Assembly: GCA_035360455.1 (NCBI GenBank)
Contig: DAOSAR010000002.1
Location: 1 to 39,297, forward strand
Direction: 5' to 3'
DNA from: Candidatus Pacearchaeota archaeon
GTDB taxonomy: Bacteria; Patescibacteriota; Minisyncoccia; Minisyncoccales; GCA-002788555
Length of the DNA stretch: 39,297 nucleotides
In this document: in pieces, positions 2,952 through 32,687 of the stretch
Numbering within the stretch: position 1 is the stretch's first letter
Layout of the letters: each line of letters opens with the position of its first letter
The notes under the pieces: generated by a model
What the model was told of the DNA's origin: nothing
What the model saw: only the letters and a program-made list of their open reading frames with translations
Databases searched by the model: none
Program-made: the position numbers and the translations under genes

Positions 2952-3725
2952 ATGATGATGATGAAAAAACATCTAAAATATTTCATCATTGTGGCAGTGG
3001 TAATATTGGTACTCTTTGGGATATGTGAAGGTTCCTTCGCTCAGACTAATCAGGCTGGAAACAATAATAAGGCAATAGAAACACAAATAAAAGCTCTTGA
3101 AAATCAAATTGAAACTCTCAAAAAGCAGCTTAATGATCAACAAACTCAACAAACCTCAACTTATAATATTGCAGTAATGCCGATTCGAAACGCAGGTCGT
3201 ATTCCCGAAGTTCGTAATGGATTAAGAGTAATGATTGTCAGCGCTTTACAGGAAAGAGGAATTTCGACAGTTGAATCTCTTGATCGTGAAACTCAACAGA
3301 TGGTTGAAGCTCAACGTCGAGCAATGAAACGTGGTTATGTTGATCCCAAACAAACTCCTCAACAAGGTAAAATGGTTGGCGCGAAGTATTTCTTAGCAGG
3401 CGAAGTTGTAAAGTATCAAGAAGATGATCAGAGACAAAACCTTGGCGGTTTATTTTCTGACCACAAGATTAATGTTTGGCTTCGAAGATCAGTTGGTTCT
3501 TTGGTAGTCGACTTTAGACTTATTGACGCTCTAACTGGCGTTGCTGTTGATTCTTTCAGAACCGAAGCTTTGGTAGAAGAAAGAAACATTGATGGAGCTT
3601 ATGTTAAAAACGTTAAAGTAAATGCTAGAAGCTATGAACAGACGCTTCCAGAGAAAGCTGCTCGAGAATGTGTTCGTCAATGCGCTGAGCATATTCAACA
3701 ATTTATTAATCCCAACGGAGTGTAA
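2952..3725 (+). CDS. Secreted CsgG/LpoB-like family protein with an N-terminal coiled coil
   Basis: It has a signal peptide (MMMMKKHLKYFIIVAVVILVLFGICEGSFA) and a Q-rich coiled coil. These are followed by YNIAVMPIRNAG...GAKYFLAGEVVKYQ...VVDFRLIDALTGVAVDSF, which matches the CsgG-family pattern as I remember it. Confidence 0.55.
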   Translation: MMMMKKHLKYFIIVAVVILVLFGICEGSFAQTNQAGNNNKAIETQIKALENQIETLKKQLNDQQTQQTSTYNIAVMPIRNAGRIPEVRNGLRVMIVSALQERGISTVESLDRETQQMVEAQRRAMKRGYVDPKQTPQQGKMVGAKYFLAGEVVKYQEDDQRQNLGGLFSDHKINVWLRRSVGSLVVDFRLIDALTGVAVDSFRTEALVEERNIDGAYVKNVKVNARSYEQTLPEKAARECVRQCAEHIQQFINPNGV

Positions 3726-11595: not shown

Positions 11596-13029
11596 TTATG
11601 TTTTTTTCTTTGCTTCTTCGATTGCTTTTTTTACTTCCTCAATATTTGGCTTTTTCGGTTTTTTAAAAGGAATCGGTTTCTTTTTGGGAAGTTCCGAAAG
11701 GGAAATTTGAGGAATTTCTCTTCTCTCTTTTTCTATTATCTTTTTAGTTTCTTCTGTTCCGCTCCAACGAGCAATTTTTTCTTCAACTTTTTCTCTTTTT
11801 GTTCCATATCGTTCACGAGAAACTTTGATAATTTTCTCTCGATAACTTTTTTCAGGCCTTTTCTGAGGAGGCAGAGTTTCTGCTGAAAATGGTCGAGAAG
11901 TAATTCCATCTACCATTAACTTTAAATATATATTATATTTTGGCAAATTTACAAGGTCGTGTAAATAAAATTCTGGTTTAAATTCTTTTTCTAAAAATTC
12001 TGCATCAGCTGCTCCCACTCGAAAAGAAACAATCGTGCCAATGTTGCCAAAAACCGCATCTCTAACTGTTTCTTCAAGCTGGCTAATATATTGATGGGCT
12101 AAAATAAGAGAAAGTCGATATTTTCTTGCTTCAGAAAGAATGGTGGCGAAAGATTCAGTAGCAAAATTTTGAAACTCATCTACGTATAAAAAGAAATCTT
12201 TTCTTTCCTCTTCAGGAATATCAATCCTTGACATTGCAGCTAACTGTAATTTTGTTATTAAGAGAGCTCCTAATAGCCTTGAAGGATCCTCGCCAATCCG
12301 CCCTTTTGATAAATTTAAAATTAAAATTTTTTCCTCATCCATTACTTTTCTCATATCAATGCTTGACTTTACCTGTCCAACAATATTTCGAATAAGTGGA
12401 GAAGAAATAAACTGCCCAACTTTATTTTGAATAGGAGCAACTGCTTCTTCTCTAAAGCGTGGAGGATACTGAGCAAATTCTTTTACCCAAAAAGATTTTA
12501 TGGCCGGATCAGTAATTTTCTCAACAATTTTATCCCGGTACTCTTTGTCTGAAAGCATGCGATTAATTCCAAGCAAAGTAGTTCCTGGTACTTCAAGCAA
12601 AGCTAAAATAGTATTATTTAAAATATATTCCATTCTTGCACTCCAGACATCAGGCCAAATTTTTTTAAAAACCCCTAAAAGCCCTGAAGAAACTAAATGT
12701 CGTTTAGAAAAATCAACCCTTTCCATAACATTAAAAGCGATAGGATATTCAATATCTGCTGGATTAAAATAAATTACGTCATTAATTCGATTTTTAGGAA
12801 CAAAATCTAACACTTTTTCAGCAAACTCTCCATGAGGATCAACAATTCCCACACCTCTTCCTTTTTGAATATCTTGAATTGCCATATTCTCCAAAAGACA
12901 ACTTTTTCCCATCCCTGTTTTTCCAATAATATACATATGCCGACGTCGATCGTCGGTTTTTATTCCAAATACTTTTTCTTTTCCGTGATAAACTGTTTTT
13001 GCAAAATGGACCACATCTTCTTCTGCCAT
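11596..13029 (-). CDS. TraD/VirD4/HerA-FtsK-superfamily P-loop NTPase without a TM domain
   Basis: Walker A IIGKTGMGKSCLLENM, Walker B-like FFLYVDEFQNFAT, and ILAHQYISQL. The overall layout is that of T4SS coupling-protein soluble domains, with a Lys-rich C-terminal tail. Confidence 0.7.
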   Translation of the reverse strand: MAEEDVVHFAKTVYHGKEKVFGIKTDDRRRHMYIIGKTGMGKSCLLENMAIQDIQKGRGVGIVDPHGEFAEKVLDFVPKNRINDVIYFNPADIEYPIAFNVMERVDFSKRHLVSSGLLGVFKKIWPDVWSARMEYILNNTILALLEVPGTTLLGINRMLSDKEYRDKIVEKITDPAIKSFWVKEFAQYPPRFREEAVAPIQNKVGQFISSPLIRNIVGQVKSSIDMRKVMDEEKILILNLSKGRIGEDPSRLLGALLITKLQLAAMSRIDIPEEERKDFFLYVDEFQNFATESFATILSEARKYRLSLILAHQYISQLEETVRDAVFGNIGTIVSFRVGAADAEFLEKEFKPEFYLHDLVNLPKYNIYLKLMVDGITSRPFSAETLPPQKRPEKSYREKIIKVSRERYGTKREKVEEKIARWSGTEETKKIIEKERREIPQISLSELPKKKPIPFKKPKKPNIEEVKKAIEEAKKKT

Positions 13030-15620: not shown

Positions 15621-16937
15621 ATGGAGGAACAATATTTTCAAATCCAAGGCAAAAAACCATTAGCTGGCGAAATTGATGTTAAAGGTTGTAAAAATGCTGC
15701 TACTCCTATTATCGCTGCTACTCTTTTAACCAATCAGCCATGCTACATTCAAAATTTACCATTAGTGGAAGATATTTTTCGAATGCTTGATCTTGTTAAA
15801 GAACTAGGTGCAAAAGTAGATTTTATTGGAGAAAGAGAAGTAAAGATAGAAGCAAAAGACCTTGATCCTTCAAGAATAAGAAAAGAGCTAGTAACAATGC
15901 TCCGTTCATCAGTTTTTCTTTTAGGGCCGTTGCTTTCTCGTTTTGGCGAAGTTAAAATGCCTCAGCCCGGCGGATGCTTAATTGGTGCAAGGCCGGTTGA
16001 TGCACATCTTGAAGGGTTTCAACAATTAGGAGCTGAAGTTGAAAGAGAAGAAAAATATTACATTTTAAAAAGCAAATATTTAAAGTCAGGCGAGGTGGTT
16101 CTTCCAGAATTTAGCGTTACTGCTACTGAAAACATTTTAATGGTCGCTGCTTTATTGCCTGGAAAAACTGTAATTAAAATTGCTGCCCTTGAACCTCACG
16201 TTAAAGACCTTTCAAGGGTTTTAGTGGAAATGGGAGCGAAGATTCGTTGGCTTGAAGATCACACAATTGAGATTGAAGGCAGAAAAAAATTAAAAGGTTT
16301 TTCTCATTTTGTTATTTATGATCCGGTAGAGGCAGGTTCTTTTATTATTTTAGCAGCAGTAACAAAAGGAGATATAGTTATTAAAAACGTTCCCTTGAAT
16401 AATTTAGATCTTGTCTTGCAAAAACTAAAAGAATTTGGTATTTTCCTTGAAAAAATAGAAAGCTCAAAAATTAATGGCGGGGCAAAATTAAAGCAATTTC
16501 AAACCCTTTTTGATGTTAAAACTAAGGCCCCGAAAGAATTTTTGCCAGTTCAAAAAGTTCAAGTTTTGCCTTATCCTGGCATCCCAACTGATCTTCAATG
16601 TGCTTTTGGAGTTTTAGCAACTCAAAATCCTGGCGAAACCTTAATTCATGATCCTTTGTATGAAGGACGATTGAGGTATCTTGACGGTTTAAATAAGATG
16701 GGAGCAGATGTTTCTATTTTAGATCCTCACCGTGCAATTGTTAGAGGACCTTCAAATTTAAAAGGACTTCCTATTGAAAATTATGACTTACGTTCAGGCG
16801 CTGCCTTCATTATTGCCGGCCTTATTGCTGAGGGAGAAACTTTAATTTCCAATGCTTATCAAGTTGATAGAGGTTATGAAAAAATCGAAGAGCGTCTTCA
16901 AAAAGTTGGTGCAGACATAAAAAGGGTAAAAGTATAA
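15621..16937 (+). CDS. murA: UDP-N-acetylglucosamine 1-carboxyvinyltransferase
   Basis: MurA pattern across the full length, including the active-site loop PGGCLIGARPVDAHLEGF and YPGIPTDLQ. A roughly 18-aa insertion lies around 16461-16541. Confidence 0.92.
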   Translation: MEEQYFQIQGKKPLAGEIDVKGCKNAATPIIAATLLTNQPCYIQNLPLVEDIFRMLDLVKELGAKVDFIGEREVKIEAKDLDPSRIRKELVTMLRSSVFLLGPLLSRFGEVKMPQPGGCLIGARPVDAHLEGFQQLGAEVEREEKYYILKSKYLKSGEVVLPEFSVTATENILMVAALLPGKTVIKIAALEPHVKDLSRVLVEMGAKIRWLEDHTIEIEGRKKLKGFSHFVIYDPVEAGSFIILAAVTKGDIVIKNVPLNNLDLVLQKLKEFGIFLEKIESSKINGGAKLKQFQTLFDVKTKAPKEFLPVQKVQVLPYPGIPTDLQCAFGVLATQNPGETLIHDPLYEGRLRYLDGLNKMGADVSILDPHRAIVRGPSNLKGLPIENYDLRSGAAFIIAGLIAEGETLISNAYQVDRGYEKIEERLQKVGADIKRVKV

Positions 16938-16988: not shown

Positions 16989-17990
16989 ATGAAAATAGGT
17001 ATTGATCTTGGCACTTGTAATTCAATTGTTTTTGTGAAAGGAAAAGGAATTGTTTTGTCAGAACCTACCGTTGTTGCTGTTTCTCAAGAAGAAAACAGAG
17101 TTTTAGCTATTGGGAAAGAAGCAAAAGAAATGCTTGGTCGCACTCCTGATACAATTGTTGCTTACCGTCCATTAAGAGATGGGGTTATTGCTGATTTCAG
17201 AGTTACCGAAGCAATGCTTCGCTATTTCATTCGAAAAGTTCAAGGGCATTTTTCCTTTACAAAACCAGAAGTTTTAATTGGCATTCCAGCTGGAGCTACT
17301 TCAACTGAAAGAAGAGCAGTGATAGAAGCTGCTTTAAAGGCCGGTGCAAAAGAAGCTTTTGTAGCAAAAGAACCGATTCTTTCAGCTATTGGCGCTGGCA
17401 TTCCTATAAACTCTTCTTCTGGCAATATGATTGTTGATATTGGTGGAGGAACAACAGAAGTTGCAGTTATTTCTCTTGGTGGGATTGTTTCAGCATCTTC
17501 AGTAAGAGTTGGTGGAGACAAATTTGATTCAGCTATTGAAAACTATATTAAAGAAAAATATGACCTGGCCATTGGAGAACAAACAGCCGAAAGGATTAAA
17601 ATTCAAATTGGTTCAGCTATGCCCCCAAAAGAAGAAAAAAAGATGAGAATAAAAGGAAGAGATTTAGTTTTGGGCCTGCCAAAAACTATTGAAATTTCCT
17701 CAACTGAAATTTGTCAATCTCTTCAAGATCAATTAGGAGAAATTCTTCAATGTGTTAAAAGTGTTTTAAAAGAAACTCCTCCAGAAATTTCCGCTGACAT
17801 TATGGATAAAGGAATGGTTTTAGCAGGTGGTGGTTCGCTTTTAAGAAGGATTGATGAATATTTGGCCAAAAACACCGGCGTGCCTTCTCAAATTGCCGAG
17901 GAGCCATTTTTTTGCGTAGCAAAGGGCACAGGCATTGTTCTTGAGCATCTTGATACTTATAAAAAGAGTATAATGGCAAAAAAGGCTTAA
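16989..17990 (+). CDS. mreB: MreB-like actin homolog, paralog 1
   Basis: IGIDLGTCNSIVF, NMIVDIGGGTTEVAVISLGGIV and VLAGGGSLLRRIDEYL. Confidence 0.9.
   Translation: MKIGIDLGTCNSIVFVKGKGIVLSEPTVVAVSQEENRVLAIGKEAKEMLGRTPDTIVAYRPLRDGVIADFRVTEAMLRYFIRKVQGHFSFTKPEVLIGIPAGATSTERRAVIEAALKAGAKEAFVAKEPILSAIGAGIPINSSSGNMIVDIGGGTTEVAVISLGGIVSASSVRVGGDKFDSAIENYIKEKYDLAIGEQTAERIKIQIGSAMPPKEEKKMRIKGRDLVLGLPKTIEISSTEICQSLQDQLGEILQCVKSVLKETPPEISADIMDKGMVLAGGGSLLRRIDEYLAKNTGVPSQIAEEPFFCVAKGTGIVLEHLDTYKKSIMAKKA
17424..17489 (+). repeat. 66-bp tract identical to 19864..19929 (mreB paralog 2)
   Basis: aatatgattgttgatattggtggaggaacaacagaagttgcagttatttctcttggtgggattgtt occurs in both genes with no mismatch, while the flanking codons differ extensively. 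Confidence 0.9.
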
Positions 17991-19410: not shown

Positions 19411-20445
19411 ATGTTTTTTCATCGCGACATTGGAATTGATCTTGGAACGGCAAATACTTTAGTTTATGCGAAAGGCCGGGGAATTATTATTAACGAACCT
19501 TCGGTAGTGGCCATTAATAAAAAAACAGGTCAAGTTTTAGCAGTGGGCGAAGAAGCTAGAAAAATGGTTGGCAAAACCCCAGGCCACATTGTTGCAACAA
19601 AACCCTTAGTTGGAGGAGTCGTTTCTGATTTTGAAATTACTGAACAAATGCTTCGTTATTTTATTGATAAAGTTTGCGGAAAAAGATTTTTTCCTTGGCC
19701 TCAGCCACGTTTAGTGATTGGTGTTCCTTGCGGAGTAACTGAGGTTGAGAAAAAGGCAGTAGAAGATGCAGCGCGAAATGCAGGTGCTGGAGAGGTTTAT
19801 TTGATTGAAGAACCAATGGCTGCGGCTATTGGCGCGCGTTTGCCAGTTCAGGAAGCAGGAGGAAATATGATTGTTGATATTGGTGGAGGAACAACAGAAG
19901 TTGCAGTTATTTCTCTTGGTGGGATTGTTAACTCACGCTCAATTAGGGTGGCTGGCAATAAATTAGATCAAGATATCATTCGTTATGCCGAGGAAAAATT
20001 TAAATTGATTTTAGGAGAAAGAACAGCAGAAGAAATAAAAATTAAAATTGGCTCAGCAATACCTTTAAAAGAAAAGCTCGAATATCCGATGAGAGGAAGA
20101 GATATTATTACGGGCTTGCCAAAAGAAATTATGGTTAGCGATGAAGATATTCGCGAAGCAATAAAAGGCTCAGTAAGAACAATTGTAAATGAAGTTAAAG
20201 CAGCGGTTGAAGATACGCCTCCTGAGCTTTTAGCTGATATTATGGCAAAAGGAATTTATCTTGTAGGGGGAGGTAGTCTTTTGCGAGGGCTAGATGAACT
20301 TTTAAAAAAAGAAACAAAAATTCCAGTAAAAATACCTGAAGATTCAATGACAGCTGTTGCGCGAGGTTGTGGTATTGTTCTTGAAAATTTACCAAAATTA
20401 AGAGAAGTTTTAGTATCAACAGAAGAGCTAGAGGCACCGAAATAA
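19411..20445 (+). CDS. mreB: Rod-shape-determining protein MreB, paralog 2 (more canonical)
   Basis: DIGIDLGTANTLVY, NMIVDIGGGTTEVAVISLGGIV and YLVGGGSLLRGLDELLKKET. Confidence 0.92.
   Translation: MFFHRDIGIDLGTANTLVYAKGRGIIINEPSVVAINKKTGQVLAVGEEARKMVGKTPGHIVATKPLVGGVVSDFEITEQMLRYFIDKVCGKRFFPWPQPRLVIGVPCGVTEVEKKAVEDAARNAGAGEVYLIEEPMAAAIGARLPVQEAGGNMIVDIGGGTTEVAVISLGGIVNSRSIRVAGNKLDQDIIRYAEEKFKLILGERTAEEIKIKIGSAIPLKEKLEYPMRGRDIITGLPKEIMVSDEDIREAIKGSVRTIVNEVKAAVEDTPPELLADIMAKGIYLVGGGSLLRGLDELLKKETKIPVKIPEDSMTAVARGCGIVLENLPKLREVLVSTEELEAPK
19864..19929 (+). repeat. 66-bp tract identical to 17424..17489 (mreB paralog 1)
   Basis: Exact match by direct comparison of the two stretches. Confidence 0.9.
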
Positions 20446-20837: not shown

Positions 20838-22334
20838 ATGACTATTACCGAACTTCATCAAAAATTTATTAAAAAAGAGTTATCGCCAGTAGAAATGGTT
20901 AAAGATTATTTTAAAAAAATTAAAAAAGATGATAGAGAAATTCATGCTTTTTTAACTTTAATGGAAGATGAAGCGTTTTTAGAAGCAAAAGAAGCCGAAA
21001 AAAAATTTTTAAAAGCAAAATCAAAAAATGACATTGAAAAAATTCCTCTTTTATGTGGCATACCTTGCGCTGTTAAAGACAATATTTTGATTGAAGATGT
21101 AAGATGCACAGCTGGTTCAAAAATTCTCGAAGATTACATTGCTCCTTATAGTGCCACAGTAATTGAAAAATTAAAAAATTTAGGAGTAGTATTTTTAGGA
21201 AAAACCAATCTTGATGAATTTGCTATGGGAGCTTCAACAGAAACCTCAGCTTACGGAGTAACGCATAATCCAATTGATAAAACTCGAGTTCCTGGTGGTT
21301 CTTCTGGCGGATCAGCTGCTGCTGTTGCTGCTGATTTTTGCCAATTTGCTTTAGGTTCTGACACTGGTGGCTCAATTCGTCAGCCGGCTTCTTTTTGCGG
21401 AGTTGTTGGTTTAAAACCAACCTATGGAGCAGTTTCAAGATATGGCTTAATTGCAATGGCTTCTTCTCTTGATCAAATCGGACCAATAACAAAAAACGTT
21501 GAAGATGCAGAAATAGTATTTAAAGCAATTAAAGGTAAGGACTCTTATGATTCGACTTCTGTCGAATCAGAGTTTCCAATTGCCGAACCCTACGAAGCAG
21601 AGCGAGGCGTAAAAAGAAGTAAAGCCTCATTGGATTCTACTTTTCAATTTTCAAAACTACGCATTGGTATTCCCAAAGAGTACTTTATTAAAGGAATAGA
21701 AAAGGATGTAAAAGAGAATATTGAAAAAGCTATAGAAAAATTTCAAAAATTAGGAGCAAAAATAGAAAGTATTTCTCTCCCGCATACAAAATATGCTTTA
21801 GCAACTTATTACTTAATTATGCCATCAGAAGTTTCTTCAAACTTAGCAAGATATGATGGGATTAGATATGGCTTGTCTAAATCTAAAATTTCAAAACTAA
21901 CTCCAAAAAATTCATTTGAAATTTATTCAAAAATTCGAGGAAAATATTTAGGGGCAGAAGCAAAAAGAAGAATTTTACTTGGAACTTTTGCTTTATCAGC
22001 TGGCTATTACGATCAATATTATTTAAAAGCAAGAATGGTAAGAGAGCTTATTAAAAAAGATTTTGAAATTGCTTTTCAAAAAGTTGATTTAATCTTAACA
22101 CCAGTTTCACCGACAACAGCTTTTAAAATTGGTGAAAACATTAATGATCCAGTAAAAATGTATTTATCAGATATCTTTACAGTGGGAGTAAGTTTAGTAG
22201 GTTTGCCAGCTCTTTCTTTACCATGCGGGAATTCAAAAGAAGGATTGCCAATCGGTTTACAAATTATTGGGAAACCTTTTAAAGAAAATATTATTTTAAA
22301 AACAGCAAAAACCTTCGATGAATTTTATTCTTAG
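20838..22334 (+). CDS. gatA: Asp/Glu-tRNA amidotransferase subunit A
   Basis: Amidase signature GGSSGGSAAAVA and GSDTGGSIRQPASFCGVVGLKPTYG. It contains extra residues around 21573-21655. Confidence 0.92.
   Translation: MTITELHQKFIKKELSPVEMVKDYFKKIKKDDREIHAFLTLMEDEAFLEAKEAEKKFLKAKSKNDIEKIPLLCGIPCAVKDNILIEDVRCTAGSKILEDYIAPYSATVIEKLKNLGVVFLGKTNLDEFAMGASTETSAYGVTHNPIDKTRVPGGSSGGSAAAVAADFCQFALGSDTGGSIRQPASFCGVVGLKPTYGAVSRYGLIAMASSLDQIGPITKNVEDAEIVFKAIKGKDSYDSTSVESEFPIAEPYEAERGVKRSKASLDSTFQFSKLRIGIPKEYFIKGIEKDVKENIEKAIEKFQKLGAKIESISLPHTKYALATYYLIMPSEVSSNLARYDGIRYGLSKSKISKLTPKNSFEIYSKIRGKYLGAEAKRRILLGTFALSAGYYDQYYLKARMVRELIKKDFEIAFQKVDLILTPVSPTTAFKIGENINDPVKMYLSDIFTVGVSLVGLPALSLPCGNSKEGLPIGLQIIGKPFKENIILKTAKTFDEFYS
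21573..21655 (+). repeat. In-frame tract of about 83 nt shared with ileS (36720..36802)
   Basis: An ungapped hand alignment gives about 67 of 83 identical positions. Both copies are in codon phase 0 and encode F(P/Q)IAEP(Y/C)EA(E/R)R(G/D)VKR(S/G)K(A/I)SL(D/N)S(T/K)FQF. Confidence 0.8.
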
Positions 22335-22393
22335 GGTTTTGTCTTTTTATCTTTATTCTTCGCTTAGGTTTTTTTGAAAGCTTTTTAAATAAA

Positions 22394-22423
22394 ACTCCGC
22401 CATCAAAAATGGCGGAGTTTTTA
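22394..22423. terminator. Bidirectional rho-independent terminator between convergent genes
   Basis: ACTCCGCCAT-caaaa-ATGGCGGAGT, flanked by an A-run upstream and TTTTTAT downstream. Confidence 0.8.
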
Positions 22424-22468
22424 TAATCAAAGTCATTTTTTCTTTCCTCTTTCATTCTATGATTAATT

Positions 22469-23707
22469 TTATTTTGGAGTTTTTTCCTTTGATCTTTTTC
22501 TTTCAATAATGCCATATCCAAGAATTGCAGAAAGGATTGAAAGGATTATTGCCGATGAAGCACCAGTTGTAGGAACATTAGGAATTGTTCTTTCAGTTGA
22601 AGCTCCCAAAACCTGACCAGGCGGTGTTGAAGGCGTTGGTATGGGAATTTCCGGTTTTGGAGTAGGAACTAAAGTAGGTGTTAAAGAAAGATCTGCTTCA
22701 AAAACCACATGTCCTTGATATGGCCAACATCCTTCAATATCGCCGATAGTCACAGTTGCTCTATTATTAGAAATAGTAACTGGCACTGATTTTCCTTCGC
22801 TAGACTGATTTGGATACCAAAGAGCAGTTGTTTTAAAGATAAGTTTTTCATTAGCATTGTTGGTCAAATTAATTGTTCCTTGATCGTAAACCGCAGTAGC
22901 ATTATCTGCCTCTATTATTCCCACTGTAACAATTTTATTTCCTGGTTCTGTTGGAAATTCAATCGAGATTTTTACATTTTTTGCAGTAGAGCATTCAATT
23001 CCATTATGGTAGTAAACATCGAAACTAATCGTATCTCCCGCATCGGCCGAGATCGGATCTTGCCAGTCTGCAGTCCCTTTAGTTTTGTTTTTCAATCTCA
23101 AGGTTTCCTTGTCGTTTGTCATAAAATTAAACTGAGGATTGGGTTTTGAAATTGTTCCTTCAAAAACTACATGACCTTGACTTTGCCAACCGCCTGCAAT
23201 GTTGCCGATATTTACAAGAACACTATTCGATTGAACAAATGTCACAGATTTATTTTGAGAAACAGTGCCTTGATTTGGATACCACAAAGCGTTCTTGTCG
23301 AAAGTAAAACTTAACCCAGAACAGGGAACTTCTACTATTCCAAGATCGTCAACATAATTTGCATTATCTGCCCAAAGAAAAGCGTGAAATTTTAATTTAT
23401 TATTTTTGTTGTCTTCAAAATCCAATCTAATCTGGGTGTTTTTTGCAGTTGTACCTGCGACTGTATTGTGGTAATAAACATCAAAAGCAATTTTATCTCC
23501 AGCTTTTGCCGAAATCTGATCTTGCCAATCTGTGGTTCCTGTAGTTCTATTTTTCATTCTCAAAGTTGATTTGTCTTGAGGATCATTATTAAATACAGGA
23601 GCAGCAGCAAAAACTTTTTCTGGCATAAAAGCAATTCCTTCAATCAAAACTAAACTTAAGAGAATACTTCCTCCAATAATTTTTTTAAAAATATTTTTTG
23701 CATTCAT
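22469..23707 (-). CDS. Secreted surface protein with two beta-sandwich-like repeats, a Pro-rich stalk and a VPTTG sortase sorting signal
   Basis: The track ORF starts at a GTG at 23767. ATG at 23707 (MNAKNIFKKIIGGSILLSLVL...AAAP) gives a clean signal peptide. There are two repeats of about 150 aa (STLRMKNRTTGTTDWQDQISAKAGDKIAFDVYYHN... and ETLRLKNKTKGTADWQDPISADAGDTISFDVYYHN...). The C-terminus is NVPTTGASSAIILSILSAILGYGIIERKRSKEK. Confidence 0.8.
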   Translation of the reverse strand: MNAKNIFKKIIGGSILLSLVLIEGIAFMPEKVFAAAPVFNNDPQDKSTLRMKNRTTGTTDWQDQISAKAGDKIAFDVYYHNTVAGTTAKNTQIRLDFEDNKNNKLKFHAFLWADNANYVDDLGIVEVPCSGLSFTFDKNALWYPNQGTVSQNKSVTFVQSNSVLVNIGNIAGGWQSQGHVVFEGTISKPNPQFNFMTNDKETLRLKNKTKGTADWQDPISADAGDTISFDVYYHNGIECSTAKNVKISIEFPTEPGNKIVTVGIIEADNATAVYDQGTINLTNNANEKLIFKTTALWYPNQSSEGKSVPVTISNNRATVTIGDIEGCWPYQGHVVFEADLSLTPTLVPTPKPEIPIPTPSTPPGQVLGASTERTIPNVPTTGASSAIILSILSAILGYGIIERKRSKEKTPK

Positions 23708-23788
23708 ATTTTTTCCGTTAGAAATAATTTTTAACGAATCTGTTTTTATTTCGACCTTTTCAACCACCTTTAGGCAGTTTTAAACAAA

Positions 23789-23817
23789 ATTATAAATATT
23801 TTAAAAACATTTGTCAA
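23789..23817 (-). promoter_or_regulatory. Consensus promoter for the surface-protein gene
   Basis: Minus strand reads TTGACA (plus 23812-23817), a 17-nt spacer, then TATAAT (plus 23789-23794). Confidence 0.55.
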
Positions 23818-23931: not shown

Positions 23932-25245
23932 TTATTGAGGATCTGGTCCTGGTCCTCCGCTATCGGAGCTTCCAGAACTACCCGAACTGCCTGATCCTGA
24001 ACCTGAACTTGAACTTCCACCGTCTGATCCACTTGAACTTCCACCGTCTGATCCACTTGAACTTCCCGAGTCACCATTATCTGATTCTCCACCTGAAGAA
24101 CATGATTGTGATCCTGGTGGAGAAGAAGGAGATGGAGGAGAAGATGTTCCTCCTGGGCCACCCGAATCTGAATTACTGCTGCTTGAACCGCTTGATCCAG
24201 CATGATCTGATCCGCTATTAAGATAAAATGATTGAGCTTTTAAAGCTGAAAGAACTTTTATAGGGTTTCCGCAATACATCAGTATTCGTGGCGTTCCAAT
24301 CAGATCTGTTAAGACTTTTTCATCTCTGGATAAATATTGTTGAAATACACAATATTCTCCATTACGTAAGCCTGCGCTCAAAACAAATGTTCCTTTTGGT
24401 AGGATCTTAACTAGTTTTTCATCTCTTTGAGTATCTTCAACTATTTTTTCAAAAATCATGAAGGATTCAACATTATTTAAGCTCAATCCGCTGATATCCT
24501 TTAAGGGTTTTTCGTATTCAGGGTGAGATTTTATATATTCAAAAACATCTTTCCAGCATTCAACTCCTCCTCCAATCATAGCTTCAATCTCTAAAGACGT
24601 TCCTACTTTTTTTGTTTTTTCTTTCGCCGGTGGCAACGTTATTGGCGTTGCTGCTGCTGTTGTTGTTGTTGTTGTTGTTGATTCAACCGGTATTGGTGGT
24701 GTTGACTTTGACAGAGTTGATTTTTCTTTTGGTTTTGGTTTTGGCTTAGGGGTTTCTACCCGACAAGGATTCCCGCAATCTGTTAAAACCCTAGGAATGC
24801 CATTCGTATCTGCCAGTGCTATTCTTGCTTTTGGTAAAGACTGTTTAATTGAATAGTACTTGCCGTTTTTCTGACCAGTGTTGATTAAAAAGGTTCCCTT
24901 TGGAACGACCATTTTCAGGCTAAGTCCTTTTTTCTCAAGAACAGCAAGAGAGTGGACTGTTTCAAAGTCTAAACCAGTTATCTCTTTCATAAGGCGAGCG
25001 TAATCGGGATCATTTTCCATTTTAGTAAGAACTTCTTGCCAAGATGAAAGACCATTAGGAACAACTCCATTATTTCGTTCTGTTCGTTGCGTAATTTGTT
25101 GGGGAACTGGTTGCTGTGTGGATTGTTGTGATGCTTGTTCCGGTTGGACCATTTGCTCTTGTTGCCGTTCTTCCTTTTGATTTAGCCAGCCAAAGAGCCA
25201 AAAAACTAATACAAGGATAGCTACGAAACTCACAATTTTTTTCAC
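23932..25245 (-). CDS. Membrane-anchored or secreted protein with two repeats of about 95 aa, a poly-Thr linker and a long Ser/Gly-rich tail
   Basis: GTG start preceded by GGGGGGTG. There is an N-terminal TM helix and a Q-rich region. The repeats share the pattern ...PDYARLMKEITGLDFETVHS...PKGTFLINTGQKNGKYY...GIPRVLTDCGNP / ...PEYEKPLKDISGLSLNNVES...PKGTFVLSAGLRNGEYC...GTPRILMYCGNP. The tail reads GSSSGSDGGSSSGSDGG... Confidence 0.75.
   Translation of the reverse strand: MKKIVSFVAILVLVFWLFGWLNQKEERQQEQMVQPEQASQQSTQQPVPQQITQRTERNNGVVPNGLSSWQEVLTKMENDPDYARLMKEITGLDFETVHSLAVLEKKGLSLKMVVPKGTFLINTGQKNGKYYSIKQSLPKARIALADTNGIPRVLTDCGNPCRVETPKPKPKPKEKSTLSKSTPPIPVESTTTTTTTAAATPITLPPAKEKTKKVGTSLEIEAMIGGGVECWKDVFEYIKSHPEYEKPLKDISGLSLNNVESFMIFEKIVEDTQRDEKLVKILPKGTFVLSAGLRNGEYCVFQQYLSRDEKVLTDLIGTPRILMYCGNPIKVLSALKAQSFYLNSGSDHAGSSGSSSSNSDSGGPGGTSSPPSPSSPPGSQSCSSGGESDNGDSGSSSGSDGGSSSGSDGGSSSSGSGSGSSGSSGSSDSGGPGPDPQ
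24008..24066. repeat. 24-bp tandem repeat, about 2.5 copies, inside the S/G-rich tail
   Basis: cttgaacttccaccgtctgatcca occurs at 24008-24031 and 24032-24055, followed by a partial third copy. Confidence 0.85.
24659..24679. repeat. (GTT)7 trinucleotide repeat preceded by a short GCT-triplet run, encoding poly-Thr/Ala on the minus strand
   Basis: Direct reading of gctgctgctgttgttgttgttgttgttgttg. Confidence 0.85.
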
Positions 25246-25284: not shown

Positions 25285-25313
25285 ACTATAATAAAAATTT
25301 TTCCATTTGTCAA
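25285..25313 (-). promoter_or_regulatory. Promoter for the S/G-rich protein gene
   Basis: Minus strand reads TTGACA (plus 25308-25313), a 17-nt spacer, then TATAGT (plus 25285-25290). Confidence 0.55.
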
Positions 25314-25324
25314 GTTTATTTGAT

Positions 25325-25353
25325 TTGACAACAATATTTAAGAATGTTATAAT
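25325..25353 (+). promoter_or_regulatory. Consensus promoter for the methyltransferase-sortase fusion gene
   Basis: TTGACA at 25325-25330, a 17-nt spacer, then TATAAT at 25348-25353. It is divergent from, and almost back to back with, the minus-strand promoter. Confidence 0.6.
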
Positions 25354-25372: not shown

Positions 25373-26635
25373 ATGCTTGCAGATTTAAAGATAAAAATTG
25401 AAAAAATTGCATATGAAAACAAACTTTTTTGGGAAGAAGCGTTAAAAGCAATCATTTCTCAGATTGTTTGTTTTGCTTTTTTCTTTTTTCTTGAGAAAAA
25501 TCTTAATATTCCATTAATTAATTTTTCTCAAAATATAATTTTCATTATTTCCGGTATCTTACTTTTTCTTTTTTTGCTTGTAACTGCTTTTAGTTTAAAA
25601 GAACTTCATCCTTCTTATATTTTTATTTTTGAAACACAATTTAAAAACAAAGGAATCTATTCCTTTGTAAGGCATCCATTTTATGCTGCTATTATCTTCT
25701 TTCTAAATCCAGCAATTGCTTTTTTATTAAGGTCAGCTGGCCTTCTTTTTGCTTGCTTTTTGAGCTATTTTATTTGGAAAAAACAGTCTGAGAAAGAAGA
25801 AGAAGAAATGATAAAAAAGATAGGAGATGAATATAGGAATTATCAAATAGAAGTTCCCCAAAGATTTTTTCCACCGGTTCTGGAAAATATTTATTTAAAA
25901 AGGAGAGCACTATTTTATATTTTAGCACCTGTTTTAAGTTCGCTAATAATTTTCTTTGCTTTTAATTTATATTTAAGCATGGCCTCAAGCAATATTTCTT
26001 TTAATGAAGAAGAAATTTTTTTAAATTCTTTACCTCAAATAATAAAAATATCTGACGACGTTATTCTTGCTGATGATGTTGTTTTGATGCAAAAACCCAT
26101 TTCTAATTTTTTATCATCACCCGCTGGCCTAGAAACGAATGAAGCTCAAAACTCTCAGGAAACCAACCAACCAGATACTTCTTCTCTAGAAATGACAAAC
26201 GAAGGGATTTATAAGAATCTCTCAGGTGTAATTTCTATTTCAAAGATCAATATTCAAGCTCCAATTATTTTTGTAGGAGATGTAAACTGGGTAAATTATG
26301 ATCATAAATATGGAATTGTTCACTATCCAGATACTGCTCTACCAGGTGAAGAAGGTGCTATTTTGCTTTCAGGACATAGCTCAGCTCCTCCAAATATAAA
26401 AAGTCAATATAATTTTATTTTTTCAGGACTAGATAAACTTGAGGCAGGCGATGAGATTACAATAACCTTTCAGGAAAATACTTATACTTATAAAGTTTTT
26501 AGAAAAGAAATAGTATTGCCTCAAGATTTTAAACTAAGAGAATATAAAGGAAAAGAGACAGTAACCTTACTTTCTTGCTGGCCCGTAGGAACAGCGGCTC
26601 GAAGGATTGTTGTAGAAGCCGAAAGGATAGAATAA
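25373..26635 (+). CDS. Fusion protein: ICMT/PEMT-like membrane methyltransferase domain + TM + linker + sortase catalytic domain
   Basis: The N-terminal multi-TM region carries KGIYSFVRHPFYAAIIFF and EKEEEEMIKKIGDEYRNYQIEVPQRFFP, the ICMT/PEMT hallmark. The C-terminal region carries ISKINIQAPIIF, LPGEEGAILLSGHSS (His), GDEITITFQENTYTYKV, TLLSCWP (Cys) and AARRIVVEA (Arg). Confidence 0.8.
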   Translation: MLADLKIKIEKIAYENKLFWEEALKAIISQIVCFAFFFFLEKNLNIPLINFSQNIIFIISGILLFLFLLVTAFSLKELHPSYIFIFETQFKNKGIYSFVRHPFYAAIIFFLNPAIAFLLRSAGLLFACFLSYFIWKKQSEKEEEEMIKKIGDEYRNYQIEVPQRFFPPVLENIYLKRRALFYILAPVLSSLIIFFAFNLYLSMASSNISFNEEEIFLNSLPQIIKISDDVILADDVVLMQKPISNFLSSPAGLETNEAQNSQETNQPDTSSLEMTNEGIYKNLSGVISISKINIQAPIIFVGDVNWVNYDHKYGIVHYPDTALPGEEGAILLSGHSSAPPNIKSQYNFIFSGLDKLEAGDEITITFQENTYTYKVFRKEIVLPQDFKLREYKGKETVTLLSCWPVGTAARRIVVEAERIE

Positions 26636-26905: not shown

Positions 26906-27424
26906 ATGTCTTTTGAAGATTTTTTTCTTTTTTTTCGCTCAGAACTGTGGGAAAATCTCGCATCTATTTTAAACCCCACTAGCATTTTACTTATTGTTTT
27001 TTTTCTTGGGGTGATTATCTGGGCTTTAACAAAAAGTTCCTGGTTAGAAGTGTATATTTTTGCTGACGCTAGAGAGTTTAAAAAAGGATCTCATATTCCT
27101 TTAGAGAAAAAAGCTCAGCAAAATTGGCAAAAAATCAAAAAACGACTTCAATCAACAAAAGAAGCAAATTGGAAATTAGCAGTTATTGAAGGAGAAGAAA
27201 TTGTTGAAGATTTACTTTTAAAAATTGGTTATAAAGCAAAAGATTTTAGGTCAAGATTATTATTAGCGGATGAAGTTAAAATACCAAATCTTAGAGACTT
27301 ATTGGAAGCAGCTGAAATTTATGAAGGAATTCTTAATGACCCTGATTATAAATTATCCCATGAGAACGCAGAGAAAGTTCTAAATAGTTTTGAAGAATTT
27401 TTAAAATATTATCAATATCTATAA
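26906..27424 (+). CDS. Hypothetical single-TM protein
   Basis: 172-aa ORF with an N-terminal TM helix (ILLIVFFLGVIIWAL) and a helical charged C-terminal domain. I recognise no family. Confidence 0.65.
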   Translation: MSFEDFFLFFRSELWENLASILNPTSILLIVFFLGVIIWALTKSSWLEVYIFADAREFKKGSHIPLEKKAQQNWQKIKKRLQSTKEANWKLAVIEGEEIVEDLLLKIGYKAKDFRSRLLLADEVKIPNLRDLLEAAEIYEGILNDPDYKLSHENAEKVLNSFEEFLKYYQYL

Positions 27425-31811: not shown

Positions 31812-31884
31812 TGCCGGAGTAACTCAGTGGCAGAGTAGCTGTTTCGTAAACAGCAAGTCGTGGGTTCAACTCCCACCTCCGGCT
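31812..31884 (+). tRNA. tRNA-Thr (anticodon CGU) with an irregular T arm
   Basis: Acceptor GCCGGAG/CTCCGGC, D arm ACTC..GAGT, anticodon stem GCTGT/ACAGC with loop TTCGTAA. The T arm GT(T)GGG-TTCAACT-CCCAC needs a bulged U or a 6-nt variable loop. Confidence 0.8.
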
Positions 31885-31949: not shown

Positions 31950-32687
31950 ATGGCTGAGGAAAATAATGTTTCAGTTTATGATGATAAAAATGCTTTTCTT
32001 TCAATTTATGCTGGAACCGGAGGAAAAGATGCTGAAGATTGGGTAACTATTTTAGCTCGAATGTATCAGCGATATCTTCAAAAAAAAGGATTTAAAATAA
32101 AAGAGATTCAAAAAATATTAGGAGAAGGAGGAATTAAATCGGTTACTTACGAAATAAAAGGAAAAGGAGCTTTCGGGCTTTTAAAAAGAGAAAATGGAGT
32201 TCACCGACTAGTAAGGATTTCACCTTTTTCGGCAAAAAAGCTTCGTCACACTTCATTTGCTTTAGTAGAAGTTTTGCCAGAAATAGATGAAAAGGAAATT
32301 AACTTAAAAGATGAAGATTTAAAAATAGAAACATTTAGGGCTTCTGGAGCTGGAGGGCAATATGTTAATAGGCGAGAATCAGCGGTAAGAATAACTCATA
32401 TTCCAACTGGCTTAAGCGTATCATGTCAATCAGAAAGATTGCAAGGCGAAAATAAAAAAAGAGCTTTGCAAATATTGCAAGCAAAGGTAATTCAATATCA
32501 ACAGGAAAACAAGAAAAAAGAAGCCATTGAAGCACGTGGAGAATTGCCTATCGCTGATTGGGGAAGGCAGATTAGATCTTATGTTTTTCAACCTTATCAG
32601 ATGGTTAAAGATCACCGAACAGGAGTAAAAACTTCAAATTTAAAAGAAGTTTTAGATGGAGACTTGAATCTATTTATTAAAAAATAA
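31950..32687 (+). CDS. prfB: Peptide chain release factor 2 lacking N-terminal domain 1
   Basis: SPF motif (RLVRISPFSAKKLRHTSF) and GGQ motif (FRASGAGGQYVNRRESAVRITHIPTG). The protein is 245 aa and starts at the equivalent of about residue 115 of E. coli RF2. Confidence 0.85.
   Translation: MAEENNVSVYDDKNAFLSIYAGTGGKDAEDWVTILARMYQRYLQKKGFKIKEIQKILGEGGIKSVTYEIKGKGAFGLLKRENGVHRLVRISPFSAKKLRHTSFALVEVLPEIDEKEINLKDEDLKIETFRASGAGGQYVNRRESAVRITHIPTGLSVSCQSERLQGENKKRALQILQAKVIQYQQENKKKEAIEARGELPIADWGRQIRSYVFQPYQMVKDHRTGVKTSNLKEVLDGDLNLFIKK

Follow-up and report, generated by a model that had tools for sequence, protein, structure and literature searches.

What does a membrane methyltransferase do when it is joined to a sortase in one polypeptide? 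The question is raised by a gene in a stretch of 39,297 nucleotides from an uncultivated Parcubacteria-type bacterium of the candidate phyla radiation (CPR) (contig DAOSAR010000002.1 of assembly GCA_035360455.1), which is called the window here. The gene (25373..26635, +) has an ATG start and encodes a protein of 420 aa, in which an ICMT-like membrane methyltransferase domain is followed by an extra transmembrane (TM) helix, a linker and a sortase. Sortases are textbook single-anchor enzymes. We consider it probable that the protein is a genuine bifunctional membrane protein, whose anchor helix has been replaced by a four-TM methyltransferase of the ICMT/PEMT superfamily and one extra helix. 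This three-part anatomy and the identity of both domains had been proposed in an earlier reading of the DNA made without database searches (the sequence-only reading), and profile and structure matches bear them out. The fusion is, so far as we can find, undescribed until now.

Domain Architecture

The ICMT/PEMT-superfamily domain occupies residues 1–167 (25373..25873, +) and was assigned from a family profile, an AF2 model searched with Foldseek, and Pfam and NCBIfam scores. It consists, in order, of a K-rich N-terminal tail predicted to be cytoplasmic, two helices (TM-a and TM-b), a cytoplasmic loop, a TM-c/TM-d hairpin and a cytoplasmic C-terminal helix. The first part of the ICMT/Ste14 motif, RHPxY, is recognized by its conservation as GIYSFVRHPFY at residues 94–104 of the cytoplasmic loop (25652..25684, +). 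The hairpin, which stands out by its pairwise identity, covers residues 101–136 (25673..25780, +) and carries a clade-specific motif, F.LNPA(I/L)A....S....W. The remaining part of the family motif, EE...(F)G.EY..Y....P, is found on the predicted cytoplasmic side at residues 140–167 (25790..25873, +) as EKEEEEMIKKIGDEYRNYQIEVPQRFFP, which aligns to the Methanosarcina ICMT structure 4a2n. The two motifs that had been quoted as the hallmark of the methyltransferase, KGIYSFVRHPFY and EEEEMIKKIGDEYRNYQIEVPQRFFP, are both present and are conserved in the family.

The extra helix and the linker are there as well. Hydropathy and charge counts place the fifth helix (TM-e) at residues 179–203 (25907..25981, +), with a conserved Asn198 (25964-25966). 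Residues 204–284 (25982..26224, +) form a low-complexity, extracytoplasmic linker of ~80 aa, which is predicted to be disordered from its low pLDDT (the per-residue confidence of the model, <35), its low identity and its variable length; in the full-length AF2 model the pLDDT of residues 205–270 is 22–35. The sortase catalytic domain follows at residues 285–420 (26225..26632, +), supported by Pfam, TIGR01076, its fold and its catalytic triad.

Identity of the Sortase Domain

The sortase assignment is clear. Pfam Sortase PF04203 matches residues 287–418 with 83.5 bits against a cut-off of 26.6, and TIGR01076 scores 66.3 bits against 39.35. The AF2 model has pLDDT values of 74–94 per 10-residue block in this domain, and Foldseek matches it to structures of sortases C, A, E and D with E values of ~1e-11 to 1e-12. 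The catalytic residues named in the sequence-only reading are His335 (LLSGHSS), Cys402 (LLSCWP) and Arg411; they are conserved across the family, His335 (GHSS) and Cys402 being invariant and Arg411 at least 90% conserved in 24 fusions. None of the NCBIfam class cut-offs (A–F) is reached, the scores being 75.6 against 160 for class C, 63 against 165 for class D, 53.5 against 160 for class E and 23 against 166 for class F. By these scores the domain is placed as a CPR sortase outside classes A–F. The sortase family is common in the CPR (Meheust et al. 2019, PMC6744442).

Identity and Constraint of the N-Terminal Domain

Profile, motif and fold all place the N-terminal domain in the ICMT/PEMT superfamily. 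Searched as a single sequence, the window protein falls just under the Pfam threshold for ICMT, reaches 15.3 bits against 25 for PEMT (PF04191) and matches NCBIfam isopcys_mtase (NF040696) with 36 bits (E 5e-9) against a cut-off of 160, the match being partial and confined to the C-terminal half; LmtA and MddA are further weak NCBIfam matches. At the level of the family the homology to ICMT, which the sequence-only reading had claimed, is borne out. A profile built from 15 fusion N-terminal domains (A3) matches the Methanosarcina ICMT chain 4a2n_B with an E value of 2.6e-14 (profile positions 6–158 to chain positions 31–193), and it aligns residues 140–167 of the window protein to a 26-residue stretch of 4a2n. 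The second-best PDB sequence match of the profile is AtTam46 (8xku_G, E 9e-13), and beetle ICMT 5v7p is matched with E 1e-3. At E ≤ 0.01, Pfam ICMT is matched by 14 of the 24 fusions and PEMT by 15.

The fold points the same way. An AF2 model of residues 1–209, calculated from 29 sequences, has a pLDDT of 86.1 and a predicted TM-score (pTM) of 0.72. Its top Foldseek matches are 5v7p and 5vg9, with a probability of 1.00, modest E values of 0.03–0.06 and a TM-score of 0.41; AtTam46 (8xku_G) comes third, followed by steroid 5-alpha-reductases, which belong to the same superfamily.

The motif, RHPxY, a hydrophobic hairpin and EE...FG.EY..Y, known from Ste14/ICMT work as that of the family, is intact in all three parts (R100-H101-P102-F103-Y104, TM-c/TM-d, and E140–E143 followed by IGDEYRNYQ), and the role of its residues in binding S-adenosylmethionine (SAM) is argued from this conservation. 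In a close family of 10 sequences, G94, Y96, R100, P102, F109, L111-N112-P113-A114-I115, S121, W135, E143, Y154, Y157, F165 and P167 are invariant. Among all 24 fusions, F109, S121 and W135 remain invariant, Y96, R100, P102, Y157, P167 and N198 are at least 90% conserved, and 23 have at least one acidic residue at E142/E143. While overall identity among the fusions drops to ~26–35%, the methyltransferase motif holds, and it can be aligned position by position with that of 4a2n and of family members that stand alone.

Constraint is distributed unevenly along the chain. Expressed as mean pairwise identity in the close family (A1) and in all 24 fusions (A2), conservation is highest of all in the TM-c/TM-d hairpin (0.63 and 0.52), next in the sortase domain (0.59 and 0.45) and far lower in the linker (0.25 and 0.16). 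In the alignment, neither the hairpin motif F.LNPA(I/L)A....S....W nor Asn198 was seen in stand-alone ICMT-like relatives. The hairpin motif (LNPAIA...S...W) together with Asn198 suggests that a specific binding site lies within the membrane or that the helices are tightly packed, and speaks against a passive anchor.

Origin and Distribution of the Fusion

A frameshift or a misassembly that joined two separate genes is hardly conceivable as the source of this arrangement. The identical 420-aa protein is found on 7 contigs from several sources, and continuous fused open reading frames (ORFs) occur in more than 20 divergent metagenomic relatives, NCBI records included; no closely related stand-alone methyltransferase was found, nor were there convincing split-gene versions among the relatives. 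An artefact was rejected for the presence of the fused ORF in so many independent assemblies.

A survey of related genomes, proposed in the sequence-only reading, shows that the fusion recurs in CPR relatives. A word-indexed search found full-length relatives with 41–57% identity, a shorter fusion with 31% and variants of 507 and 528 aa. In a hidden Markov model search of 1.84 billion representative proteins with a full-length profile, ~17 clusters (at 50% identity) have one match across both domains, and below them the matches are plain sortases throughout. A pattern-based scan of 185,579 GTDB species genomes, one per species, gave one fused locus only, that of Parcubacteria group bacterium GW2011_GWB1_42_6. 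The named carriers are Parcubacteria or Portnoybacteria, and one branch is labelled "hypothetical protein [Candidatus Portnoybacteria bacterium]". No paper that pairs a sortase with ICMT or PEMT, and no description of the fusion, was found in the literature searched, which agrees with the earlier supposition that it had not been described. A common fusion that had already been characterized was considered and rejected for its rarity (~17 clusters in 1.84e9 representatives), the single GTDB locus and the "hypothetical protein" names.

When the sortase domains are arranged in a neighbour-joining tree, the fusions all group in a single clade, which has two sub-branches. The few sortase-only sequences nested in this clade include P0010, P0037 and P0043, which are short and probably truncated calls, P0042, which has one TM helix, the single-TM relative P0033 and the small P0038/P0039/P0045 group. 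The nearest stand-alone relatives of the N-terminal domain are 165-aa "methyltransferase family proteins" of Peptoniphilus (E ~1e-14). No other recognisable N-terminal domains were found on other long CPR sortases. As far as the sequences tell, the fusion is real, old and rare, and had a single origin.

Predicted Membrane Topology and the Fate of the Cleaved C-Terminus

SAM is a cytoplasmic metabolite and a sortase acts outside, and the sequence-only reading had cautioned that the two active sites must be compatible with one topology. This caveat proves decisive. Hydropathy places the TM helices at residues 24–40 (TM-a), 54–74 (TM-b), 101–118 and 122–136 (the hairpin) and 179–203 (TM-e). The number of K plus R in the alternating loops is 4, 1, 4, 1, 9 and 1, or 17 inside against 3 outside, the inside being the side of the N-terminus and of both motif loops. 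The same parity of TM helices holds in every variant of the family and keeps the methyltransferase loops on the inner side of the membrane and the sortase on the outer. Because of the charge bias and of this parity, the two active sites are predicted to lie on opposite faces of the membrane. The fifth helix would be exactly what reconciles an inward methyltransferase with an outward sortase.

Two departures from the common plan were noted among the relatives. In P0003 (~263–318) and P0004 (~283–343; encoded at L001 10001-11587) the linker is lengthened by exactly two TM helices, which are flanked by Pro-rich sequence, and P0011 and P0023 are without TM-a and have a short acidic N-terminus instead.

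The predicted topology bears directly on the mechanism first proposed for the fusion, a two-step maturation of the CaaX kind in which cleavage by the sortase would free the carboxylate of a now C-terminal Thr and the ICMT-like domain carried by the same chain would methyl-esterify it. The two domain identities on which this proposal rests are correct, and the analogy to the pathway in which Rce1 or Ste24 is followed by ICMT speaks for it. Against it, the active sites are on opposite faces in every family variant by prediction, the cleaved protein of ~400 aa is outside the cell, and SAM is cytoplasmic. In solved ICMTs the S-adenosylhomocysteine site lies within the largest cytoplasmic region (PMC13007279). 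The chemistry is unfavourable as well: sortases form a thioacyl intermediate on the cleaved Thr and pass it to an amine, and no free carboxylate is released. Because of the opposite-face topology and this chemistry, the CaaX-like route is disfavoured, and we give it very little credence.

The Predicted Substrate and Its Neighbourhood

The sequence-only reading had pointed to a VPTTG protein beside the fusion, and this protein is indeed the predicted sortase substrate. It is encoded at 22469..23767 (−) and has 432 aa when counted from a GTG, the more likely start being Met21 (MNAKNIF..); a signal peptide and a sorting signal support the assignment. The C-terminal sorting signal (22472..22576, −), recognized as a sequence pattern, consists of VPTTG (NVPTTG with the residue before it), the hydrophobic TM stretch ASSAIILSILSAILGYGII and the basic tail ERKRSKEKTPK, and among window ORFs of at least 80 aa this is the only one that fits the pattern. 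The substrate is made of two tandem domains of ~150 aa, which are 47% identical (E 9e-44); searches of Pfam and of PDB sequences with this domain gave no match. The protein has neither a C-terminal Cys nor a CaaX box.

The middle gene of the cassette (23932..25245, −) encodes a DUF6777-like protein of 437 aa (Pfam E 1.4e-8) with an N-terminal TM helix or signal, two DUF6777-like modules and a Ser/Gly-rich tail. On the other side of the fusion gene lies a membrane protein of 172 aa (26906..27424, +), a conserved cassette neighbour in close relatives, which is 44–51% identical to the 173- and 175-aa proteins of L001 and L002, the two closest long contigs.

The divergent, back-to-back consensus promoters that had been read from the sequence were found in a consensus scan. 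The promoter-like site of the fusion gene (25325-25353, +) is TTGACA-17-TATAAT with an extended TG and agrees with the consensus at 12 of 12 positions, and the divergent site of the DUF6777 gene (25285..25313, −), TTGACA-17-TATAGT, agrees at 11 of 12. A further site with 12 of 12 positions precedes the substrate gene (23789..23817, −). All three genes of the cassette thereby have separate sigma-70 consensus promoters, perfect or nearly so. Promoter-like sites number 24 in the region, compared with 15.8 ± 3.6 after shuffling.

Gene order is shared with the close relatives. L001 and L002 both have the fusion, a small Pro-rich membrane protein, the substrate, the membrane protein of 173–175 aa and gatA-gatC-mreB; these genes are present in the window too, where part of the cassette is inverted. 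The substrate orthologues, of 443 or 414 aa, end in SVPKTG or KVPVTG followed by a TM helix and a basic tail, and their signal can be written (I/V)P(T/V/K)TG. In these orthologues (P0201–P0209; L001 12525-13856, L002 12369-13613) a strongly conserved amphipathic basic tail of 27 aa follows the TM helix; typical sortase substrates have 5–8 residues there. The tail of the window substrate is shortened. Downstream of the stop at 22469 (window 22330-22600, −) the same frame gives ...KEKTPK*N*S*NERGKKK*L; this looks like what decay has left of the 27-aa RKK.KEKLLGSKL....KKKGL of the orthologues.

Such tails raise the thought that the methyltransferase might methyl-esterify the C-terminal carboxylate at the cytoplasmic end of the sorting signal, in the uncleaved protein or in the peptide that cleavage leaves in the membrane, so that the signal would be gripped on both faces of the membrane. 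Methylation of the alpha-carboxyl of a membrane-tethered C-terminus is established ICMT chemistry, the tail is predicted to lie in the cytoplasm, as is the methyltransferase site, and the unusual length and conservation of the 27-aa tail would fit such a role. Yet homologous substrates beside plain sortases have long basic tails too, stop codons have removed most of the tail from the window substrate although the methyltransferase motif beside it is intact, and there is no feature like a prenyl-Cys. We consider this route quite improbable.

The Cassette in Other CPR Lineages

The substrate family extends far beyond the fusion, to Paceibacterota, Berkelbacteria, Nomurabacteria, Yonathbacteria and others. 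L004, of the Portnoybacteria branch, has in order a DsbA-like protein, a CAP protein, the fusion, two small proteins and two CLIPPER-repeat proteins. The N-terminal domain of these CLIPPER-repeat proteins is homologous to the window substrate (E ~2e-21), and the longer of the two ends in SVRAVTGA, a TM helix and a basic tail. Among CPR surface-protein homologues (P0210–P0276; L004 5584-7752) the motifs before the TM helix include LPxTG, VPxTG, E(V/I)(N/K)TG, VPTGITG and RAVTG, and the sorting signals of the CPR may therefore extend beyond the canonical set.

A recurrent CPR cassette can be recognized at these loci (L012 7073-12094; L014 8367-11650; L004 839-7752), made of a dedicated sortase, a small protein and a CLIPPER-family surface protein, in some cases with a CAP protein. 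The small protein of the cassette is either DUF6777-like or Pro-rich. That of L014 is homologous to the 437-aa DUF6777-like protein of the window (E 3.5e-10), and a Pfam search of the small cassette proteins at the other loci gave no match. The idea that a DUF6777 neighbour stands at every locus holds only in part, the proteins of the window and L014 being homologous and L003 and L004 sharing a different small protein. A DsbA-like gene lies upstream of the cassette in L004 and L003. Seen against these loci, the fusion is one form of a dedicated sortase cassette that is general in the CPR, a single sortase clade having gained a methyltransferase domain.

Proposed Mechanism

By prediction, the chain starts in the cytoplasm, where both SAM-motif loops (GxYxxxRHPxY and EE..G.EY..Y) remain. 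The fifth helix leads the chain outside, and the disordered linker of ~80 aa holds an intact His-Cys-Arg sortase there. According to the reading that we favour, the outward sortase would cleave the VPTTG signal of the neighbouring protein and hand the protein to an amine acceptor, by analogy a peptidoglycan precursor. Very probably, the VPxTG protein of the neighbouring gene is processed by the sortase domain on the outer side of the membrane; in the window, L001, L002 and L004 alike, the fusion gene adjoins homologous surface proteins with a sorting signal.

The methyltransferase domain would be catalytically active and SAM-dependent and would methylate a lipophilic molecule at the cytoplasmic leaflet. 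Enzymes of the ICMT fold use quite different acceptors, which include a carboxylate (ICMT), a lipid A phosphate (LmtA), the thiol of methanethiol (MddA) and a phospholipid amine (PEMT), and by comparison with these enzymes the domain may act on such a molecule in the inner leaflet. The most economical candidate would be the polyprenyl-linked wall precursor that the sortase later uses, although another membrane lipid may serve instead; the C-terminus generated by the sortase would not be the target. To our knowledge, this precursor, built inside and used outside, is the only lipophilic molecule common to sortase chemistry. Of the functions that had been suggested for the methyltransferase domain, the modification of a lipid or cell-wall acceptor is the one that we tentatively prefer.

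A more specific version of this idea is that the fusion couples two steps on one lipid carrier across the membrane: the methyltransferase would methylate the precursor, for example by methyl-esterifying a stem-peptide carboxylate of lipid II, and after the flip of the precursor the sortase of the same protein would use it as acceptor for the VPxTG protein. Because of the MurA gene and the two MreB genes in the window, a peptidoglycan wall seems likely in this small-genome organism. We know of no enzyme that has been assigned to the carboxyl methylation of peptidoglycan. Such methylation of stem peptides has been reported in mycobacteria (PMC4995902). The lipid II route is a hypothesis built on chemical plausibility and the Rosetta-stone argument, and we judge it unlikely to be correct in this precise form.

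Several observations weigh against an active bifunctional enzyme, and the lipid II hypothesis just described has to be counted among the less secure parts of the reading. The opposite placement of the two active sites is a prediction. The window protein alone matches Pfam ICMT (PF04140) with 22.9 bits (E 1e-4), just short of the gathering score of 24. The motif has degenerated in two members of the family, P0036 being without RHPxY and EE and P0032 without the FG..Y..Y helix, and both retain the TM hairpin and an intact sortase domain. P0033, a close relative with 54% identity in the sortase domain, has a single TM helix only. At L012 and L014 the cassette, with a CAP protein in some cases, consists of a plain single-TM sortase of 224–232 aa, the small protein and the substrate. 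Since the cassette operates elsewhere with plain sortases, sorting as such does not depend on the methyltransferase domain.

These facts would suit an ICMT-like domain that is an anchor or scaffold without catalysis, or a docking platform for the sorting-signal helix or for lipid II. The motif decay in P0036 and P0032, the plain single-TM sortases in the same cassette and in P0033, the ICMT-like motor subunit AtTam46, for which no activity has been shown, and the position of the TM hairpin, rather than the SAM loops, as the most conserved segment are all in its favour. But in most fusions the residues G/Y96, R100, (H)101, P102, E142/143, Y154, Y157 and P167 are near-invariant over deep divergence and match those of stand-alone members, and an anchor would not need them, while the linker, a pure spacer, has drifted to 16–25% identity. 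The mundane role of a simple anchor, which the sequence-only reading had allowed for, does not suit most members, in which the SAM-type motif is clearly constrained; in P0032 and P0036 the motif looks decayed. For the family as a whole we think a mere scaffold unlikely, although it is the main rival reading, and the bifunctional membrane protein is retained as the probable reading.

The bacterial ICMT-fold methyltransferases are mostly orphans, and the envelopes and host-attachment surfaces of the CPR are poorly understood. The fusion, kept over deep divergence, is a Rosetta-stone hint that inner-leaflet SAM-dependent methylation is tied to the anchoring of surface proteins in the CPR. A single polypeptide with a neighbouring substrate provides a handle on what bacterial ICMT-like enzymes methylate and on the chemical marking of wall precursors or lipids ahead of their use by a sortase. 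If the methylation of lipid II were true, the fusion would be the first enzyme for peptidoglycan carboxyl methylation and would define a new acceptor-marking route for anchoring; if the domain were only a scaffold, a polytopic enzyme fold would have been recruited as a sortase anchor.

Other Features of the Window

The genes from which a wall is argued lie at lower coordinates than the cassette. A MurA-like gene of the EPSP_synthase family (15621-16937, +) precedes two MreB paralogues (16989-17990 and 19411-20445, +), which flank the gene of a class II aminoacyl-tRNA synthetase. At higher coordinates, a release-factor ORF of only 245 aa (31950-32687, +) has matches to RF-1 and, from profile position 97 on, to PCRF, and the usual N-terminal domain seems to be missing; a tRNA-Thr gene lies just upstream at 31813-31884. 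Elsewhere in the window, an 805-aa Laminin_G_3 (concanavalin-like) protein (448-2865) stands beside a CsgG-like protein (2952-3725), and a TrwB/VirD4-like type IV coupling ATPase is encoded at 11596-13029.

Comparison with Known Systems

Eukaryotic CaaX processing resembles the fusion in that a C-terminal-processing peptidase is tied to a methyltransferase of the ICMT family. The CaaX enzymes, in contrast, act on the same prenylated C-terminus on the cytosolic face, where proteolysis frees the carboxylate, whereas the fusion has its two sites on opposite faces by prediction, with a transpeptidase in the place of the peptidase and no part for prenylation machinery. AtTam46 (PDB 8xku) is another ICMT-fold protein that is built into a protein-handling machine, the chloroplast Ycf2-FtsHi import motor, as the methyltransferase domain here is built onto a sortase; it differs in being a separate subunit of a different machine and not a fusion.

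The Methanosarcina ICMT (4a2n) and other prokaryotic ICMT-fold enzymes have the same motif as the fusion, GxYxxxRHPxY, a hairpin and EE..FG.EY..Y....P, and their cofactor loops face the cytoplasm, as is predicted for the fusion. The fusion clade is set apart from them by being always joined to a sortase through an extra TM helix, by having four core TM helices only and by its own hairpin motif, LNPAIA...S...W. The single-anchor sortases of classes A–F and the common CPR sortase family share with the fusion the His-Cys-Arg triad and the beta-barrel fold, an extracytoplasmic catalytic domain on a linker and an adjoining substrate with xPxTG, a TM helix and a basic tail. Unlike them, the fusion has a polytopic, enzyme-type N-terminal domain in place of one helix, and its signal motif is VPxTG here and RAVTG in the Portnoybacteria branch.

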